UHGV virus genome: UHGV-1364441
DNA: 64,000 nt
Strand: one strand, 5' to 3'
From: a virus
How positions within the stretch are numbered: the stretch's first letter is position 1; every line of letters begins with the position of its first letter. A program made the position numbers and the translations under genes. This document shows positions 3,141 to 54,120 of this stretch, in pieces. The notes beneath the pieces are model-generated. The model worked only from the letters and a program-made list of their open reading frames with translations, was not told the DNA's origin and made no database searches.

Positions 3141-4802
3141 ATGAGTGAGGCAGAAGCCCGCCCGACTAACTTTATTCGTCAGATCATCGATGAAGATCTG
3201 GCAAGTGGTAAGCACACCACAGTACATACCCGTTTCCCGCCGGAACCGAATGGCTATCTGCATATTGGTCATGCGAAATCTATCTGCCTGAACTTCGGGA
3301 TCGCCCAGGACTATAAAGGCCAGTGCAACCTGCGTTTCGACGACACTAACCCGGTAAAAGAAGATATCGAGTACGTCGAGTCGATTAAAAACGACGTTGA
3401 ATGGTTAGGTTTTCACTGGTCTGGTAACGTCCGTTACTCCTCCGATTATTTTGATCAGCTCCACGCCTATGCTGTTGAACTGATCAACAAAGGCCTGGCG
3501 TATGTTGACGAACTGACGCCGGAACAGATCCGCGAATACCGCGGCACCCTGACGCAGCCGGGTAAAAACAGCCCGTACCGCGATCGCAGCGTTGAAGAGA
3601 ACCTGGCGCTGTTCGAAAAAATGCGTGCCGGTGGTTTTGAAGAAGGTAAAGCCTGCCTGCGTGCGAAAATCGACATGGCGTCGCCGTTTATCGTGATGCG
3701 CGATCCGGTGCTGTACCGCATTAAGTTTGCTGAACACCACCAGACTGGCAACAAGTGGTGCATCTACCCGATGTACGACTTCACCCACTGCATCAGCGAT
3801 GCGCTGGAAGGTATTACGCACTCTCTGTGTACGCTTGAGTTCCAGGACAACCGTCGCCTGTACGACTGGGTGCTGGACAACATCACCATTCCTGTTCACC
3901 CGCGCCAGTACGAATTCTCGCGCCTGAATCTGGAATACACTGTGATGTCCAAGCGTAAGCTGAACCTGCTGGTGACCGACAAGCACGTTGAAGGCTGGGA
4001 TGACCCGCGTATGCCGACCATTTCCGGTCTGCGTCGTCGTGGTTACACTGCGGCTTCTATTCGTGAGTTCTGCAAACGCATCGGCGTGACCAAGCAGGAC
4101 AACACCATTGAGATGGCGTCGCTGGAATCCTGCATCCGTGAAGATCTCAACGAAAATGCGCCGCGCGCAATGGCGGTTATCGATCCGGTGAAACTGGTCA
4201 TCGAAAACTATCAGGGAGAAGGCGAAATGGTCACCATGCCGAACCATCCAAACAAACCGGAAATGGGTAGCCGTCAGGTGCCGTTTAGCGGTGAGATTTG
4301 GATCGACCGCGCCGATTTCCGAGAAGAAGCTAACAAGCAGTACAAACGTCTGGTGCTGGGTAAAGAAGTGCGTCTGCGTAATGCTTACGTCATTAAGGCT
4401 GAACGCGTGGAGAAAGATGCCGAAGGCAATATCACCACCATCTTCTGTACTTATGACGCCGACACCTTAAGCAAAGATCCGGCAGATGGTCGTAAAGTGA
4501 AAGGCGTTATTCACTGGGTGAGCGCGGCACATGCGCTGCCGGTTGAAATCCGCCTGTACGATCGTCTGTTCAGCGTGCCGAACCCAGGTGCTGCTGATGA
4601 TTTCCTGTCGGTGATTAACCCGGAATCGCTGGTGATCAAACAGGGTTTTGCTGAACCGTCGCTGAAAGAAGCGGTAGCGGGTAAAGCATTCCAGTTTGAG
4701 CGTGAAGGTTATTTCTGCCTCGACAGCCGCCATTCTACGGCGGAAAAACCGGTATTTAACCGCACCGTTGGGCTGCGTGATACCTGGGCGAAGTTAGGTT
4801 AA
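3141..4802 (+). CDS. glnS: Glutaminyl-tRNA synthetase (class I aaRS), full length 553 aa
   Basis: HIGH motif (HIGHAKS), KMSKS-type motif (VMSKR), and end-to-end resemblance to enterobacterial GlnRS as I recall it. Confidence 0.95.
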
Positions 4803-15931: not shown

Positions 15932-15979
15932 AGTGACTCCTTGCTTTCGAAGCCGTCACAGACTGTTCCACGGTCTGGT

Positions 15980-16046
15980 GGCGGCGCAATACAGGTTGGA
16001 ACACCGTGAGTCAACGGGGGCTTTTAGCCACCTGTATTGCGCTGCC
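15980..16046. repeat. 17-bp inverted repeat (GGCGGCGCAATACAGGT / ACCTGTATTGCGCTGCC, 1 mismatch) with 33-nt spacer
   Basis: Read directly; lies between the Ref-like gene and the small ORF pair. Confidence 0.4.
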
Positions 16047-16156
16047 ATAACTATGACATTGGCAATCATACGAAATCCTTGAGGATTTGTCTCGTTGCGT
16101 CGAGCGGTGAACCAATCTAATCAAAATGTACAATCAGTAAATTTCAAACTCAACAT

Positions 16157-39065: not shown

Positions 39066-39519
39066 AACGTCTCCTTTTTACACGCGCGACCATCCCTCGG
39101 TTAAACCGATAGAGATGTCGAAACTTCGTATTAATTAAGGGTTACAGCCTGAGCGGCTATATGATGAATTGAAAGGAGTTGTGGCGGTGGTGCCTCCACC
39201 TGCCAGGTCAGCCACGCCCGGCGACGACACTTATCAGAACCGCAATTAATGAAAATGGCTTCGTCACGAGCGCATAGCCGCAATTACCACAACGGAAACG
39301 GTGCTCACGCTAATTAAACGCCTTTTCCTGTTGTGCGCCGTGCTCTTCCGGCTGTCACACCGAATCGCCAGGGTGGTGAGTCCTCGGTCCGACGATATGA
39401 ACGGGGCTTGCACATTCCGGCTACCTGGTTTGTTGCCTGAGCTAGGGGAAAAGGTAACCCCTTTAACGTCACCAGACCGCTAACGACGCATGTGCCATAC
39501 GCCGTGTTACAACCAAATA

Positions 39520-39595
39520 TGGTGGCCCCTACCGGACTTGAACCGGTGACCGTGCGATTATGAGTCGCCAGCTCTAACCACTGAGCTAAAGGGCC
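39520..39595 (-). tRNA. tRNA-Ile2 (anticodon CAU, lysidine type) or tRNA-Met-like
   Basis: Manual fold: 7-bp acceptor stem, CCA encoded, anticodon loop CUCAUAA; close to E. coli ileX; one mismatch at the base of the anticodon stem. Confidence 0.75.
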
Positions 39596-39604
39596 AGATT
39601 ACTG

Positions 39605-39733
39605 TTAATTCCGCTTACGCTTTTTGCCAGAACCGCGTAAGGCTTTTGCCGCTTGCTCGATCCCATATGCAACCACCAGCAGAAATAAAAATGTCCAACC
39701 AGGGTTCTTATCGGCAAAGGCCCAAAAATCCAT
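39605..39733 (-). CDS. Possible 42-aa membrane peptide (MDFWAFADKNPGWTFLFLLVVAYGIEQAAKALRGSGKKRKRN)
   Basis: Own translation; one TM helix plus basic tail; weak RBS. Confidence 0.25.
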   Translation of the reverse strand: MDFWAFADKNPGWTFLFLLVVAYGIEQAAKALRGSGKKRKRN

Positions 39734-40007
39734 CACTTGCAGCTACCTTTTAAGACAAAACGCCATTGCTGTTAGATTGCGGTGCCTGGTGCCTCCAGGT
39801 GACGTTAACCAGTTAACAATTAACGCCGGGATGTTTGACTTCACTATTGAGGAAAATTGTTTTAACTGTTCCGCGTGCGCTTAGCCGCATTCACCGCAAT
39901 GGTAAGAGCACTTGGCTGGCTGGGCGGCGATGACGCCTGTACGCATTTGGTGATCCGGTTCTGCTTCCGGCATTCGCTTAATTAGCCAAATACTCTTAAC
40001 GTTGCGC

Positions 40008-40094
40008 TGGCGGAGAGTAATGGAATCGAACCATCATCGCTTGCGCAATGGGACGGTTTTCAAGACCGCTTGAGCACCATGCTCCCTACTCTCC
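40008..40094 (-). tRNA. tRNA-Ser (anticodon UGA), type II with long variable arm
   Basis: Manual fold: 7-bp acceptor, 3-bp D-stem, anticodon loop CUUGAAA, variable-arm hairpin with GCAA loop, T-loop TTCGATT, CCA encoded. Confidence 0.65.
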
Positions 40095-40478
40095 GGCCGT
40101 TGTGGTGGCCGGTACTGAATCTCCGGCATACGGTGCAGCCAATTAGGACTACGGACGATCACCGCTCGCGAAAGGGAAGGTTTGCGGCCGCATTTCCCTA
40201 ACATCCAAGAAAGCTATCGCATCAGTCTGCGAATCCACCACAACGTTGAGAACACTGGTTGTCACGCTGCAACGCAACATTTATTCGTAGATTGGGATAT
40301 GACCCCGTTACGTCAGTGTTCTCAACGTTGTAGTACCGGTTACGGTTCCGGCCAGGCCTCTTCCTCAACGGGGTATTCTCCATACGGACTACCGTTTATT
40401 GGTCGTTCCTGCGGTTTATGTTGTGAAGCCAGATGCTTATCTTCTGGTTGCTTCAAAGAGCTGCACTTCATCACAACG

Positions 40479-40552
40479 GTAAGGGTACTTCGTAGGGATT
40501 CGAACCCTCTGCCAAGCACGGCGATCTCCGACGTCGCAAAATACCCTTACCT
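40479..40552 (-). other. tRNA-like fragment or structured element (T-arm-like GGGTTCGAATCCC inside a 10-bp closing stem)
   Basis: Does not fold as a canonical cloverleaf (no D or anticodon arm in register, no CCA). Confidence 0.3.
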
Positions 40553-40559
40553 GTTGTGT

Positions 40560-40635
40560 TGGTGCCGATTAACGGACTCGAACCGCTGACATCCTGCTTA
40601 CAAGGCAGGCGCTCTACCAACTGAGCTAAACCGGC
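40560..40635 (-). tRNA. tRNA-Thr (anticodon UGU)
   Basis: Manual fold: canonical cloverleaf, anticodon loop CUUGUAA, CCA encoded. Confidence 0.85.
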
Positions 40636-40637
40636 AT

Positions 40638-40714
40638 TGGCGATGGTGGGTGGATTCGAACCACCGACCGACAGCTTAGAAGGCTGCTGCTCTATCCTAC
40701 TGAGCTACACCATC
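40638..40714 (-). tRNA. tRNA-Arg (anticodon UCU)
   Basis: Manual fold: canonical cloverleaf, anticodon loop CUUCUAA, CCA encoded; 2 nt from tRNA-Thr. Confidence 0.85.
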
Positions 40715-41220
40715 ACTTGCCGGGTACGTCTCCGGCGAGGGCTTCCACCTCCGTATGCTTTTCGGCGCACCGCGCCCTGGCTGCAATTCAGTAACAGGGG
40801 ATGCATAACCCTGGCTTCCAGCGTGATAAGCGCCTTCAGCATGACGGGATATACCCGTAACCAACAAACTTTCCCATATACCATCAAACAATGGCTGTTA
40901 CGCGGGAGGGACGTAACAGGTAAGGGCGCTGACCAGAAAGACCTGACCCTTCTCATTCATCTGGTTAATCACACCAGCGCCCTTGCCTGTTATGCCTCCC
41001 CGTTCCCTAATACACAGACGGGGTCACTCTGCGGTCGATTTTTTGACGGGGGACGACTCATACCCCGTGGCGTCTGGCTTCTTAGGCCGCTACCATCATC
41101 AGATCATCGTTTGCATTTACTTTAATGGTCGGTTTCTAAACCGCCGCAAAGCCGCTAACCATGACGAAAACCCTAAAAAAGCCCACCCGAAGATGGGCAA
41201 ATACGCTACATCTCACACAA

Positions 41221-41293
41221 GAAAGAAGCCGACTGCCTGAGCTGGATTCACTTTCAAATGCCCGCAGAAAGGGAACACAAGTCGGCTTCTTTC
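41221..41293. repeat. Perfect 14-bp inverted repeat GAAAGAAGCCGACT / AGTCGGCTTCTTTC with 45-nt spacer
   Basis: Read directly in the non-coding stretch. Confidence 0.5.
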
Positions 41294-41512
41294 TTGATGC
41301 GGCACTCTCTCCGCCCGTCACCGCTCTGTCTCGGTTGTCGCGTTTGCCACGCCAGCCATAACGAGGTTTAAAGTCTTTGCACGTTTCCATCACTCGACTG
41401 CCGTCTGTGGCTGTTCGTTGCAGCGGGGGTGCCTCCCCCTGGGGATATCCCCGGCCTTACCCCATTCTTTCAAGACACAATGCAAGGCCGCATCCGCATA
41501 GGTGCATTACCG

Positions 41513-41579
41513 CAACATTAAGGAGACTTAGGGCAAAAGGTAATCGCCACAAAAAAATCCCTATGCCTCCTTAATGTTG
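41513..41579. repeat. Perfect 13-bp inverted repeat CAACATTAAGGAG / CTCCTTAATGTTG with 41-nt spacer
   Basis: Read directly; spacer contains a nested TAGGG/CCCTA pair. Confidence 0.5.
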
Positions 41580-41783
41580 AGGATGTGCATTGATGATGAT
41601 TCGATGCGGCGAGTCCCGTTACTCTCTGCCGGACCATCATCAATGAACATCTTAAAAAGACCTTCCGTGGCTCAACATGTCTTGTCGTTTACTCCGTAAA
41701 GTGCTCTCTCTGAAACCACTTTACGCACTAAACCTGCTGAACTTTGGCTTGCTCGGTGCCAAAGCAAATCCCTGTATGCATGT

Positions 41784-41805
41784 AATTTTCTAACACTTTA
41801 ATTTG
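41784..41805 (-). promoter_or_regulatory. Operator-like motif (minus strand GTGTTAGAAAATTAC)
   Basis: Instance of the recurrent motif. Confidence 0.45.
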
Positions 41806-41937
41806 TTATTTGCTGGTGGGCGAACAACAACCAATAAGTGACTATCAAGCCCAGCAAGCGAAATGTGGCAACGCTCCACCAGCAAGGAAAATTCTAAGTT
41901 AAGTTACTCTCACAATCAATATGTTCGTTTGGTGAAA

Positions 41938-41960
41938 TTAGATTTCTAACACATTATTTC
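41938..41960 (-). promoter_or_regulatory. Operator-like motif (minus strand GTGTTAGAAATCTAA) overlapping the 41954 stop
   Basis: Instance of the recurrent motif. Confidence 0.45.
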
Positions 41961-43174
41961 CCATAAAGATCTTCTACGCCCCCATTCTTCTTGTCCCATT
42001 CGTTAGCCCACACCCGGCAGGCATCAATAATTTCTTGACGACGGTCGCCCTGCATAAAGGGGATGCTTTCATGAAAACTACTTGGGATACAGGCCACGCT
42101 GAATACGGTATCAAACGCAGTCTGTTTGATAGCTTCCAACGTCTCTGGGCGCATTTTCAATTCATCGATCGGCGCATCCTTAGAGTCCATAATCCGGCGA
42201 TGCAGGCGCGGGAAATCAGTCTCCAGGTACGCCATAATTTTATCTGCCAGGCATTCGTCTATATCGGTATTCCAGTCCGTTTCGAAGCCGGGCAGGCGAT
42301 AGTAAAGCGGCGTTCCCCATACTGATGGGATCACATCCATCGTCAGCAGGCGGTTGGTTCTAATTTGTTGATGGTAATTAGCCGTCAACAGAGCTTCACC
42401 ACGCTGACCAGTCTCCGCAACCAGACCATGCGGGTACTCATGGATATAGGCAATAGCATCCACCCCGTCATACATGAGCGGGAATGTCTCTGGCCTTTGT
42501 CCCATACCACAAGCGCGGTTCAGATCATGACCAAGCTGTGAGCACTCTCGTTTCAGCGTTTCAATAATGTTCTGCGCTGCTGCTAACTTTTTACGCAGTG
42601 TGACGCCTTCGCCTTGATACTTAATGCATTGCTGATTCAGCTCTGTTAAACGCTCTTTTAGTTCCCGACGCTCTCTTTTCAGCGCACGGTTATCCTTCTC
42701 CGCAACATCCAGTCGTTTTGACAGACTGGCTGGATAGTCTTTTTTGTAACGACTCAAATCGGCTTCTGCGGATTTGCGCAGTGTGTTTGCCTGTTCAAGA
42801 CGCGCTTCCAGATTGCCGATCTCACTACGCATATTCGCGGCAAATTGATTAACAGCATTGCCAAGACTTTCAACTGTCGCTGATACGCCTGTGACTTGTG
42901 AAAAACGGATCAAGCCATCATTAACGGCTTGTTGATATTCCTCAAACTGATCCACCAGCTTGTTGTAATCAACCGTCCCTTCCTCAAGTAGCTGGTTGAT
43001 CTCCGCGACCAGGTTATCAGTAGTGGCAATGACGCTCTCATGTAGCCGTCTAGACAGGTCATCCCCCGGATTCCGCTTTTGAATAAGGGCGATCTGTGTC
43101 CGCAGCGTTTCAATCGCGGCTGAGATGATTTCCAGATTAGAAGTATCAGTTTGTTGACTCATTGCAGTTCCCAT
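41954..43174 (-). CDS. Coiled-coil hypothetical protein (406 aa)
   Basis: N-terminal coiled coil, C-terminal globular region; start could be ATG 43162. Confidence 0.5.
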   Translation of the reverse strand: MGTAMSQQTDTSNLEIISAAIETLRTQIALIQKRNPGDDLSRRLHESVIATTDNLVAEINQLLEEGTVDYNKLVDQFEEYQQAVNDGLIRFSQVTGVSATVESLGNAVNQFAANMRSEIGNLEARLEQANTLRKSAEADLSRYKKDYPASLSKRLDVAEKDNRALKRERRELKERLTELNQQCIKYQGEGVTLRKKLAAAQNIIETLKRECSQLGHDLNRACGMGQRPETFPLMYDGVDAIAYIHEYPHGLVAETGQRGEALLTANYHQQIRTNRLLTMDVIPSVWGTPLYYRLPGFETDWNTDIDECLADKIMAYLETDFPRLHRRIMDSKDAPIDELKMRPETLEAIKQTAFDTVFSVACIPSSFHESIPFMQGDRRQEIIDACRVWANEWDKKNGGVEDLYGK

Positions 43175-53553: not shown

Positions 53554-53975
53554 CAGTGTGCCTCCGCAATTCCGGAATTGGTAATATTGCGATACCAAGG
53601 ATTAGTGTTTGGTTGTGATGAAGAAGAGAAACGGCCAGTAAGGACGCCATGTTGATCAGGGATCAGAGAACGGGCTTCTTTTTCAGTTGCGGCAATTGCG
53701 AAGTGATCACAGTGTTTTTGCAGGGAGTGGAAACGCCAGATAAATTCCGGGCGCGAGCAAGGATTGGCATTAACCATAGTTACGGCCTCATTCGTAGGTT
53801 TAACAACCTGCGCCCCGCTGCTAAACGGGTGGCAGGACGTGACGGGGTTAGCAGACTGGCACGAATGAAACCAGCAGGCCGAAGCCTCCCCATCACGCCC
53901 CACCATAATTCGGGCGTAACGTGGTTTTACGGACACAAAAATACCGCAATATCGGATATCTGCGGTTGTCCGCAT
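53553..53975 (-). CDS. Hypothetical protein upstream of the Rha-like gene
   Basis: Coupled ORF; an antisense ORF 53649-53993 competes, so the coding frame is uncertain. Confidence 0.3.
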   Translation of the reverse strand: MRTTADIRYCGIFVSVKPRYARIMVGRDGEASACWFHSCQSANPVTSCHPFSSGAQVVKPTNEAVTMVNANPCSRPEFIWRFHSLQKHCDHFAIAATEKEARSLIPDQHGVLTGRFSSSSQPNTNPWYRNITNSGIAEAH

Positions 53976-54120
53976 TCGTATTCAGGCTGCTAAACCCGGT
54001 CGCAGAATTTGCTACGACGACATGAATATAAGCCTGAAAACATGGAAGATCAACTAAAAATTTCAGCAATGGATGACTTCAGTCGATGATGCAGATCATA
54101 CATTCCGATTTAGAAACGGC

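Follow-up and report, generated by a model that had tools for sequence, protein, structure and literature searches.

A tmRNA-like tag RNA module in the non-coding leader of the tRNA/tci operon of a D6-like phage-plasmid

The DNA analyzed here (the window) is a stretch of 64,000 nucleotides (nt) from the virus genome UHGV-1364441, assigned by its sequence to the P1 family of phage-plasmids as a D6-like member. The region in question, positions 40715-41950, is the minus-strand, non-coding leader of the phage-plasmid transfer RNA (tRNA)/tci operon, and is not DNA filler. Within this leader lies a module of about 180 nt, here called the tag RNA, which resembles the messenger RNA (mRNA)-like/pseudoknot domain of a transfer-messenger RNA (tmRNA) standing by itself and is not a canonical tmRNA. 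The reading preferred here, held with a probability of roughly 0.6, is that the leader carries a tag RNA derived from tmRNA, with host ribosome rescue as its target. A preliminary description, made from the letters of the window, had proposed that the stretch could encode structured RNAs, and this proposal is borne out by compensatory hairpin changes in diverged relatives and by a conserved tmRNA-like module with covarying pseudoknots. The parts of the module are as follows.

40998-41174, minus strand: the tmRNA-like tag RNA module as a whole (5' domain, tag frame, H5, PK2 and PK3), about 180 nt.
41115-41174, minus strand: 5' domain, marked by sequence conservation and made up of AGGGUUUUCG, hairpin 1, hairpin 2 and the single-stranded ACCAUUAAAGUAAAU.
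41152-41167, minus strand: hairpin 1 (UCG-variable loop-CGG), with a loop of 3-13 nt across copies.
41130-41143, minus strand: hairpin 2, CGGUUUAGAAACCG (GUUU-UUAG-AAAC).
41082-41114, minus strand: tag-like frame GCA AAC GAU GAU CUG AUG AUG GUA GCG GCC UAA, reading ANDDLMMVAA*.
41068-41096, minus strand: H5-like hairpin with the UAA stop in its loop, 100% paired, all 4 pairs changing on both sides.
41034-41068, minus strand: H-type pseudoknot PK2, with stems S1 ACGGGG/CCCCGU (41063-68/41046-51) and S2 GUCG/CGAC (41054-57/41034-37).
40998-41034, minus strand: H-type pseudoknot PK3, with stems S1 CGCAG/CUGUG (~41030-34/41012-16) and S2 CCCCG/CGGGG (41019-23/40998-41002).

The frame was pointed to by a weak match to the Rfam model tmRNA_permuted. 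It is preceded by UAAAU, the A-rich single strand before it ending in AUAAAU. Among 128 loci with the module, all 128 instances of the frame are 10 codons long and followed by a stop, and 17 peptide variants are encoded (ANDDVVLMAA, ANEEMYLAVA, ANDEQFLAVA and ANDNEFKVAA among them), which start with AN(D/E) and end in (A/V)A, with one exception that ends in AP. The first half of these peptides is acidic or polar and the second half is hydrophobic. Felix O1-like copies, which fall outside the pattern used for selection, read ANDNVFLAVA*. The SsrA tag of Escherichia coli is ANDENYALAA, and the variants follow the pattern of the bacterial SsrA tag.

Structural conservation of the module was assessed by covariation. 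Column-wise mutual information on a MAFFT alignment was swamped by clade structure, and it was replaced by an alignment guided by a covariance model (CM) and by a sequence-wise search for stems. The model, R1, was built from the nested helices only, leaving the crossing stems out, and aligned 101 matches, 67 of them distinct; in the window, it matches 40979-41096 (the 3' 118 nt) with 79.3 bits (E = 1.3e-20, cmsearch). Paired cells made up 85.8% of the alignment versus 71.4% in shuffles (0 of 500 reached the observed value), covariation was 0.351 versus 0.146 in shuffles, and pairing fell to 30-45% when the partners were slid as a control. Stem S1 of PK2 is 98% paired with three covarying pairs. 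The two crossing stems are fully paired in the majority subtype, the 19 rows that appear 'unpaired' being the P1/N4/Ackermann subtype, displaced by one column. In the sequence-wise search, all four pseudoknot stems were present in 94 of 99 distinct sequences, with 9 distinct complementary variants of PK2 S1, 4 of PK2 S2, 8 of PK3 S1 (including CGCAC/GTGTG, CGCAG/CTGTG, CGCAT/ATGTG, CGTAC/GTATG, CATGG/CCGTG, CGTGG/CCATG and CGGAG/CTCTG) and 24 of PK3 S2. Because the stems contain conserved G-U pairs, the sense strand is the minus strand of the window.

The 5' domain, which starts with GUUUUCG, is too conserved for covariation testing. Two candidate structures that involve it found no support: candidate pairings for a PK1-like pseudoknot are not conserved across subtypes, and in a long-range minimum free energy helix of AGGGUUUUC (41174-41166) with GGAAGCCCU (~40741-40733) the partner is invariant while the 5' variants AUGG, AGUG and UGGG break pairs uncompensated, and locus L027 has no partner at all.

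The module is found in many phages besides those of the P1 family. With 40715-41205 as a sensitive BLAST query, 252 phage records matched, and besides P1-like elements these included about 230 unrelated phage records that matched over window positions 40989-41172 only; a lambdoid copy used as the query matched 763 phage records, and an exact-pattern scan of IMG/VR yielded at least 120 loci with the module. Carriers include P1, P7, D6, HK620, Vi01, and Felix O1-like, N4-like (Bp4, ECBP1, KP8) and T1-like phages, as well as phages of Klebsiella, Serratia and Erwinia, and the module is hardly ever annotated in the matched records. Its usual location is next to tRNA genes or in the late leader of lambdoid phages: the tRNA array holds it in Felix O1-like and N4-like phages, in HK620 it is between qut and the annotated late terminator, and in E. 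coli genomes it is on P1-like plasmids and, in two inspected prophages, between the Q antiterminator and the holin gene. The 5'-domain/resume pattern gave four matches in about 185,000 species-representative bacterial genomes (three Enterobacterales records and one metagenome-assembled genome labelled Bacillota), and ordinary bacterial ssrA genes therefore do not carry this sequence signature. Furthermore, a consensus sigma-70 promoter in several other phages sets the start at, or a few nt before, GUUUUCG, which makes the module an RNA gene of its own. These data indicate that the module is an independently mobile RNA gene, and that clear purifying selection acts on it across unrelated phage families. 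The suggestion in the preliminary description that the stretch is a decayed captured segment thus survives in part, as the core looks captured from a tmRNA; decayed it is not.

The module was then compared with known tmRNAs and their models. Like tmRNA (SsrA, RF00023), it has an A-rich single strand that ends in the resume signal and is followed by GCA AAC GA(U/C), a 10-codon frame for an AND...(A/V)A peptide, a stop in the H5 loop and H-type pseudoknots after the frame, and it gives partial CM alignments over model positions 56-295. Dissimilar from tmRNA, it is without the acceptor stem, T-arm and CCA, and hence without the G3:U70 alanine identity; it has two pseudoknots after the frame and no PK4, and two simple hairpins where PK1 stands; and it is about 180 nt against about 360 nt, is borne by phages, and lies within tRNA operons or late leaders. 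The module is not filed as a tmRNA because the defining tRNA-like domain is absent. The tmRNA_permuted model scored 23.6 bits in the window, below gathering, and 33-39 bits in phiEa2809, Bp4 and L026 (E = 5.3e-6 in a 1.3-kb search); the beta_tmRNA model gave a partial match of about 17 bits over the resume region, tag and pseudoknots; and RF00023, with a gathering threshold of 47 bits, had no match in the window, 15 bits in Alf5 (model positions 56-295) and 15-20 bits in related loci. The CM alignments run from the resume region through the tag to the first pseudoknot. The Rfam scan proposed in the preliminary description thus returned only sub-threshold tmRNA matches to the leader, and no Rfam family other than tmRNA was found there.

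The best CM similarity, up to 39 bits (RF04321), is to the two-piece, circularly permuted tmRNAs of beta- and alpha-proteobacteria and cyanobacteria (RF04321, RF01850, RF01849). Around the resume codon and the end of the tag, the consensus ...AUAAAUGCAAACGAU...GCnGCCUAA is almost identical, and in those tmRNAs, too, the coding part is a separate RNA piece. However, an acceptor piece located upstream in their precursor pairs with the coding piece, and the phage module has a hairpin loop of 3-13 nt instead; in the beta_tmRNA alignment, the helix that encloses 127 consensus positions closes over a single nucleotide in the phage RNA. An acceptor piece was not found upstream of the module, where a terminator hairpin (P1/D6) or a promoter (L026, L037, Alf5) is located, and the scores against RF04321 and RF01850 (23.6-39 bits) are below 47.

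Phage derivatives of tmRNA are on record, namely that of mycobacteriophage DS6A, which has only the tRNA-like domain (TLD-only), and complete tmRNAs in Bxz1-like mycobacteriophages and Bacillus phage G (Hudson et al. 2014, PMC4131195; PMC11915505). DS6A resembles the present case in that the derivative is phage-encoded, and phages do keep partial tmRNAs; DS6A keeps the tRNA-like domain only, whereas the tag module keeps the complementary part only, as its mirror image. The 2014 tmRNA census (PMC4131195) records no ssrA in any enterobacterial phage or plasmid, the only phages listed with one being mycobacteriophages and Bacillus phage G, and the 2025 tmRNA database paper holds nothing on enterobacterial phages. 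A literature search that covered the tag peptides, phage tmRNA-like RNAs and leader RNAs of P1 turned up no account of the element, which within the literature searchable appears to be undescribed.

Several results weigh against the preferred reading. Every Rfam tmRNA match is below its gathering score, and ARAGORN with default settings predicted no tmRNA in the window or in 127 related loci. At thresholds of 80-90%, ARAGORN gave three incompatible tRNA-like domains in the window, and a domain in cis was rejected. A scan of the whole 64-kb window for an acceptor with G3:U70 plus a T-arm found nothing credible, no consistent complement to the 5' end of the module (CGAAAAC) was found within about 1 kb in 55 lineages, and no significant pairing of the module with a neighboring tRNA or tRNA-like element was detected (duplexfold z ~ +0.9). 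The last codons of the frame lie in the H5 stem and alanine is four-fold degenerate, so structure could explain part of the conservation of the frame. Lastly, the copy in the window shows no promoter of its own and has a strong terminator directly upstream, and its expression therefore depends on read-through. Two further candidates were discarded: the ARAGORN predictions in L004 and L106 either rely on a repeated arm, GTTGTGG, or are located upstream of the promoter of the module, and a pairing of UUAGAA of hairpin 2 with a UCU anticodon loop fails as P1 has tRNA-Asn at that place and Felix-type modules are without hairpin 2.

A tRNA-like RNA does stand beside the module in one group of phages. 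The tRNA-like 3' end of Alf5 recurs in 13 IMG/VR loci. In 12 of these and in Alf5 itself, the module is equipped with a promoter of its own, and an unannotated, D-armless tRNA-like RNA lies 45-100 nt downstream of it (L135, which is Alf5, at 2665-2746; L137-L140 and L142-L149). This Felix O1-like RNA has the acceptor stem CGGGGCG/CGCCUCG with G3:U70, the discriminator A (A73) and an encoded CCA, scores 31.7 bits against the Rfam tRNA model, and has a covarying anticodon-like stem and the anticodon-like loop CUUCUAA. G3:U70, A73 and the absence of a D-stem are hallmarks of the tRNA-like domain of tmRNA, and the Felix O1-like arrangement suggests a split system. Against this, the two RNAs showed no pairing with each other, and a scan of the 64-kb window found no such tRNA-like neighbor for the P1/D6-type module. 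It is possible, on balance doubtful, that many enterobacterial phage families encode a split tmRNA, in which the TLD-less tag RNA would work in trans with a separately encoded, alanine-accepting, D-armless tRNA-like piece or with host tmRNA-SmpB, and a phage-specified degron would be added on stalled ribosomes.

In lambdoid prophages and N4-like phages (L004 at 4243-4372, L042 and L079; L006, L085, L091 and L126), tag modules have unannotated tRNA-like elements of another kind, 124-130 nt long, on their downstream side. These elements have perfect 7-bp acceptor stems, a canonical T-arm, A73-CC and a very long middle part, and the copy in L004, the sole one inspected in detail, has a D-arm.

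The remainder of the leader was characterized by comparison with relatives. Identity of the region to phage D6 is 94.9%, and to E. coli plasmids it reaches 99.8%. An alignment of the leader was made from the window, D6, an Escherichia marmotae plasmid (82% identity) and a Shigella dysenteriae plasmid (74%). All neighboring genes are on the minus strand, in the order pmgS-like gene (41954-43174), leader, tRNA-Arg(UCU), Thr, Ser and Met, and then the tci genes; within the leader, the promoter and two operator-like sites are followed by about 700 nt of hairpins, the terminator, the module, a cassette hairpin and the tRNA array. The features other than those of the module are listed here in the direction of transcription.

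41943-41959, minus strand: operator-like site O1, immediately upstream of the promoter and reading AAATAATGTGTTAGAAA on the sense strand.
41891-41919, minus strand: sigma-70-type promoter, with -35 TTGATT (41919-41914), a 17-nt spacer and -10 TAGAAT (41896-41891).
41810-41885, minus strand: leader hairpin I8, a 10-bp perfect stem TTGCTGGTGG/CCACCAGCAA with a 56-nt interior.
41787-41803, minus strand: operator-like site O2, about 80-100 nt downstream of the predicted start.
41687-41733, minus strand: leader hairpin I4, with 22-nt arms and a 3-nt loop, local z = -4.45.
41489-41656, minus strand: two long leader hairpins, I3 (41577-41656) and I1 (41489-41603), z = -5.9 to -8.6.
41417-41511, minus strand: nearly invariant block of about 95 nt with three GC-rich hairpins, GGCCUU..AAGGCC, GGGGAUAUCCCC and GGGGGAGGCACCCCC.
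41306-41415, minus strand: separate module of about 110 nt, with an 81% match to L134 (2001-2113), absent from the S. dysenteriae leader.
41218-41296, minus strand: hairpin I5, a 17-bp perfect stem with a 45-nt loop.
41175-41198, minus strand: intrinsic terminator GCCCAUCUUCGGGUGGGC plus U6, at which the lineage-specific leader ends and P1 homology starts.
40904-41001, minus strand: cassette-type long hairpin I2, with 27-nt arms, AUAACAGGCAAGGGCGCUG ... CAGCGCCCUUACCUGUUAC, z = -3 to -5.6.
40715-40903, minus strand: trailer or pre-tRNA leader, reaching the 5' end of tRNA-Arg, homologous to P1, with a variable patch at 40859-40888.
40638-40714, minus strand: tRNA-Arg(UCU), the first gene of the tRNA array and lower border of the leader.

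The comparison with P1 and D6 proposed in the preliminary description revealed homology to both, that to P1 being confined to window positions 40220-41201 (P1 68855-69841, 92% identical). The P1 counterpart is the leader between the C1-controlled promoter Pban/Op72 and trnA, which includes an annotated 'dicF-like region'. P1 68855-69347 is 90% identical to the window over 487 nt, and the order terminator, module, tRNAs (trnA-trnT in P1) is common to both; the promoter is likewise taken to be repressor-controlled, whereas the P1 annotation is silent on the tag module. Window positions 41202-41950 are specific to the D6 lineage, which has about 700 nt of unrelated hairpins where P1 has about 160 nt from Op72 to the terminator.

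The promoter at 41891-41919 was the sole promoter-like site found by a promoter scan of 39300-42300, and its position matches that of P1 Pban/Op72. Both hexamers are kept in the four lineages (the -10 box of S. dysenteriae is TAAAAT), and transcription would start near 41884. The operator-like motif, TTTCTAACAC(W)TTA(W)TT, has eight copies in the window against 0.76 expected, a number reached in no shuffle, and resembles the C1 operator of P1. O1 and O2 are conserved in all four lineages, even in the 74%-identical S. dysenteriae plasmid; O1 lies upstream of the -35 box without overlapping the hexamers, and E. marmotae has an additional, inverted copy beside its -35 box. Because the motif is enriched, conserved, positioned like Op72 and present in other copies beside the c4 region, the promoter is probably repressor-controlled. 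The two motifs had been described as bracketing the stretch; they are real, but both are promoter-proximal, at its right end, and bracket nothing.

The hairpins of the D6-lineage leader show signs of conservation as RNA structure. The stem of I8 is lengthened by compensatory changes (GGGCG/CGCCC in D6 and GGGGA/TCCCC in E. marmotae), and in the I1/I3 block E. marmotae has A-U to G-C compensatory changes, CAACGTTAAGGAG/CTCCTTAACGTTG and GCAGAG/CTCTGA. The block at 41417-41511 is about 100% identical in the four lineages, the rest of the leader being 74-93% identical, and has no Rfam match. The leader is a mosaic, with S. dysenteriae changing to a P1-like segment after 41415. The adjoining module at 41306-41415 occurs again on a Pantoea plasmid (L134) that is otherwise unrelated, where it lies in unannotated DNA between listed genes. 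Conservation of the terminator extends to P1, D6 and S. dysenteriae, and the 'dicF-like region' annotated in P1 overlaps it with its 3' end.

These elements bear on whether the functional output of the leader is instead a trans-acting small RNA (sRNA), DicF-like or Hfq-dependent, such as the unit from promoter to terminator. The annotated 'dicF-like region' at the homologous terminator speaks for such an RNA, as do the resemblance of hairpin I5, about 20 nt of single strand and the terminator with U6 to the 3' end of an Hfq-type sRNA, and the invariant block at 41417-41511, which suggests a sequence-specific function. Similarity to DicF (RF00039) near the terminator was noted by the P1 annotators; however, neither RF00039 in window positions 40700-42000 and P1 3400-4250 nor any other sRNA family matched at E up to 10 on either strand, and the D6-type unit of about 700 nt is long for an sRNA. 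An sRNA as the functional output in place of the tag module is therefore judged improbable, though sRNAs from the leader would be compatible with, and not exclusive of, a tag RNA acting on ribosome rescue.

A leader that acts purely in cis, through attenuation or antitermination, sites for RNase III, RNase E or RNase P, or stabilizers of the tRNA operon, with the module as a captured tmRNA fragment serving as a structural spacer, would account for the strong intrinsic terminator between the promoter and the tRNAs, through whose homolog P1 must read to express ban according to its annotation. It is also consistent with the lack of a tRNA-like domain and with the conserved hairpin cassettes found on either side of RNA units in many phages. 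Neither a 10-codon frame with a stop in all copies nor covarying pseudoknots in unrelated families would be required of a spacer, and in the several phages where the module has its own promoter it is not a leader; a purely cis-acting leader is accordingly considered unlikely.

The cassette hairpin that follows the module belongs to a recurrent type. Cassettes in the window lie at 40904-41001 and 40470-40560 on the minus strand, with the near-constant arms CACAACAGGTAAGRGCA ... TGCYCTTWYCGTTGTG; in many phages such cassettes enclose variable cargos of 30-110 nt and flank the tag module. Across the 128 loci, the motif of the 5' arm occurs 209 times in sense and 11 times in antisense orientation, and 136 paired cassettes hold 54 distinct cargos. 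Several cargos contain T-arm-like hairpins (GGTTCGAATCC). The cassettes could be processing sites or mobile RNA cassettes.

With regard to the inverted repeats, two perfect ones had been reported. The first is present and is longer than the 14 bp given, spanning 17 bp (41218-41234/41280-41296, spacer 45); the second was given correctly as 13 bp (41513-41525/41567-41579, spacer 41) and is the perfect core, within I1, of a longer, imperfect repeat whose arms extend over 45 nt. When 40715-41950 was shuffled 200 times with dinucleotides preserved, the longest perfect repeats had a mean length of 8.1 bp and reached 12 bp at most; repeats of at least 13 bp, two of which are present in the actual sequence, appeared in 0 of 200. 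The reported GC hairpins exist as well (GGGGGTGCCTCCCCC at 41425-41439 and GGGGATATCCCC at ~41441-41453), while the GC richness ascribed to the stretch amounts to a moderate rise only (0.52-0.56 over 40450-41650 versus 0.41-0.50 in the flanks). On the minus strand, folding energy relative to shuffles was z = -5.96 for 41200-41900 and z = -3.10 for 40715-41180, with local z-scores of -4.5 to -8.6 at 41500-41749.

Long inverted repeats and repeated operator-like motifs also speak for an element acting at the level of DNA, such as a replication origin, a packaging site, or a partition or host-factor binding array. However, a repeat search showed no direct-repeat (iteron-like) array; the stems keep G-U pairs, which the opposite strand would turn into A-C mismatches; the cassette arms show a strong strand bias; the module moves among phages with unrelated replication and packaging systems; and the region lies within a transcription unit beside tRNAs. 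The replication or packaging cis element offered in the preliminary description thus finds no support, the signals being strand-specific and RNA-like, and a DNA element is regarded as very improbable.

Protein coding was assessed as a further explanation, in which small proteins would be encoded, for example by the plus-strand open reading frame (ORF) at 40841-41044 or the minus-strand ORF of 85 amino acids at 41393-41136, the longest on that strand. The former is the sole PHROG match in the stretch (phrog_27020, E = 4e-42), and 'hypothetical proteins' are annotated here in some deposited phage and plasmid records. However, this ORF is interrupted by stops or frameshifts in P1, L033, L054, L068 and L108 and overlaps the cassette hairpin, and phrog_27020 is, on these comparisons, very likely a spurious protein family. 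The 85-residue ORF meets a stop at codon 4 in its E. marmotae homolog and passes through the terminator and the tag module, no Pfam domain was found in ten ORFs of the stretch, and the differences from D6 are patchy and include indels of 2 and 3 nt. The view that no ORF here is credible therefore stands, good protein homologs, named beforehand as the finding that would overturn it, having been searched for with a negative outcome, and encoded small proteins are thought extremely unlikely.

Several further observations concern the tRNA array and the rest of the window. The first tRNA after the leader is Arg(UCU) in the window and E. marmotae, Asn(GUU) in P1, D6 and S. dysenteriae, and another in L108, and its acceptor stem GATGGTG/CACCATC and flanks are identical throughout (L001, L002, L008, L009, L108, L132, L133); by sequence, this looks like a swap of the anticodon arm within a constant tRNA frame. 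A match to STnc100, a Salmonella sRNA family, lies between tRNA-Met and tRNA-Ser (39778-39898, minus strand) and is sub-threshold (38.5 bits versus a gathering score of 47, E ~6e-6 to 8e-5). Between tRNA-Ser and tRNA-Thr, a long, nearly perfect inverted repeat at 40240-40330 forms the region's most stable local fold (z = -6.35) and coincides with plp, a dubious lipoprotein gene annotated on the opposite strand of P1. Elsewhere, an immI-type C4 antisense RNA (71.9 bits) and its a1/b1 target lie at 53825-54031 (minus strand), and another C4-like sequence, at 15974-16052 (minus strand), is below threshold (39.7 bits); copies of the operator-like motif adjoin both (54129 and 16153).

The proposed course of events is as follows. 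The operon would be transcribed from the promoter at 41919/41891 when prophage repression is lifted, as at P1 Pban/Op72, and the transcript would cross about 700 nt of D6-lineage hairpins to the terminator at 41198-41175. Part of the transcription would read past this terminator into the module, cassette hairpin, trailer and tRNAs, as must happen in P1 for ban. The tRNAs and the module would then be freed by RNase P and other nucleases, with a predicted RNase P cut at the tRNA (40714/40715) setting the leader's 3' side, and the released tag RNA would act on the host ribosome-rescue (trans-translation) system. As to the manner of action, the frame may actually be decoded, with the tRNA-like function supplied in trans; this is tentatively favored because length, stop and peptide character are conserved. 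Alternatively, and with somewhat less likelihood, the tag RNA may be a decoy for factors that bind the mRNA-like/pseudoknot region of tmRNA. A cis-regulatory role, sRNAs or a relic together take up the remaining probability.

tmRNA is regarded as a bacterial and organellar molecule, and here a complementary half of it, with frame and pseudoknots intact, is found in classic laboratory phages (P1, P7, HK620, and Vi01-like, Felix O1-like and N4-like phages), in regions treated for decades as empty leaders. Some lambda-P22 hybrid phages and Mu depend on tmRNA, and the tag RNA might be related to this dependence. Even as a structural RNA only, the module is among the most widespread unannotated RNA genes of enterobacterial phages and merits an Rfam family, and it accounts for 'hypothetical protein' calls that are spurious, phrog_27020 being one of them; along with the hairpin cassettes, the module shows phage tRNA regions to be arrays of mobile RNA modules. 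If the tag RNA does act on ribosome rescue, it would represent a new kind of phage-host interaction in translation quality control, and if the split tmRNA is real, degrons such as ANDDLMMVAA, ANDDVVLMAA and ANEEMYLAVA would reprogram host protein quality control during infection or induction.

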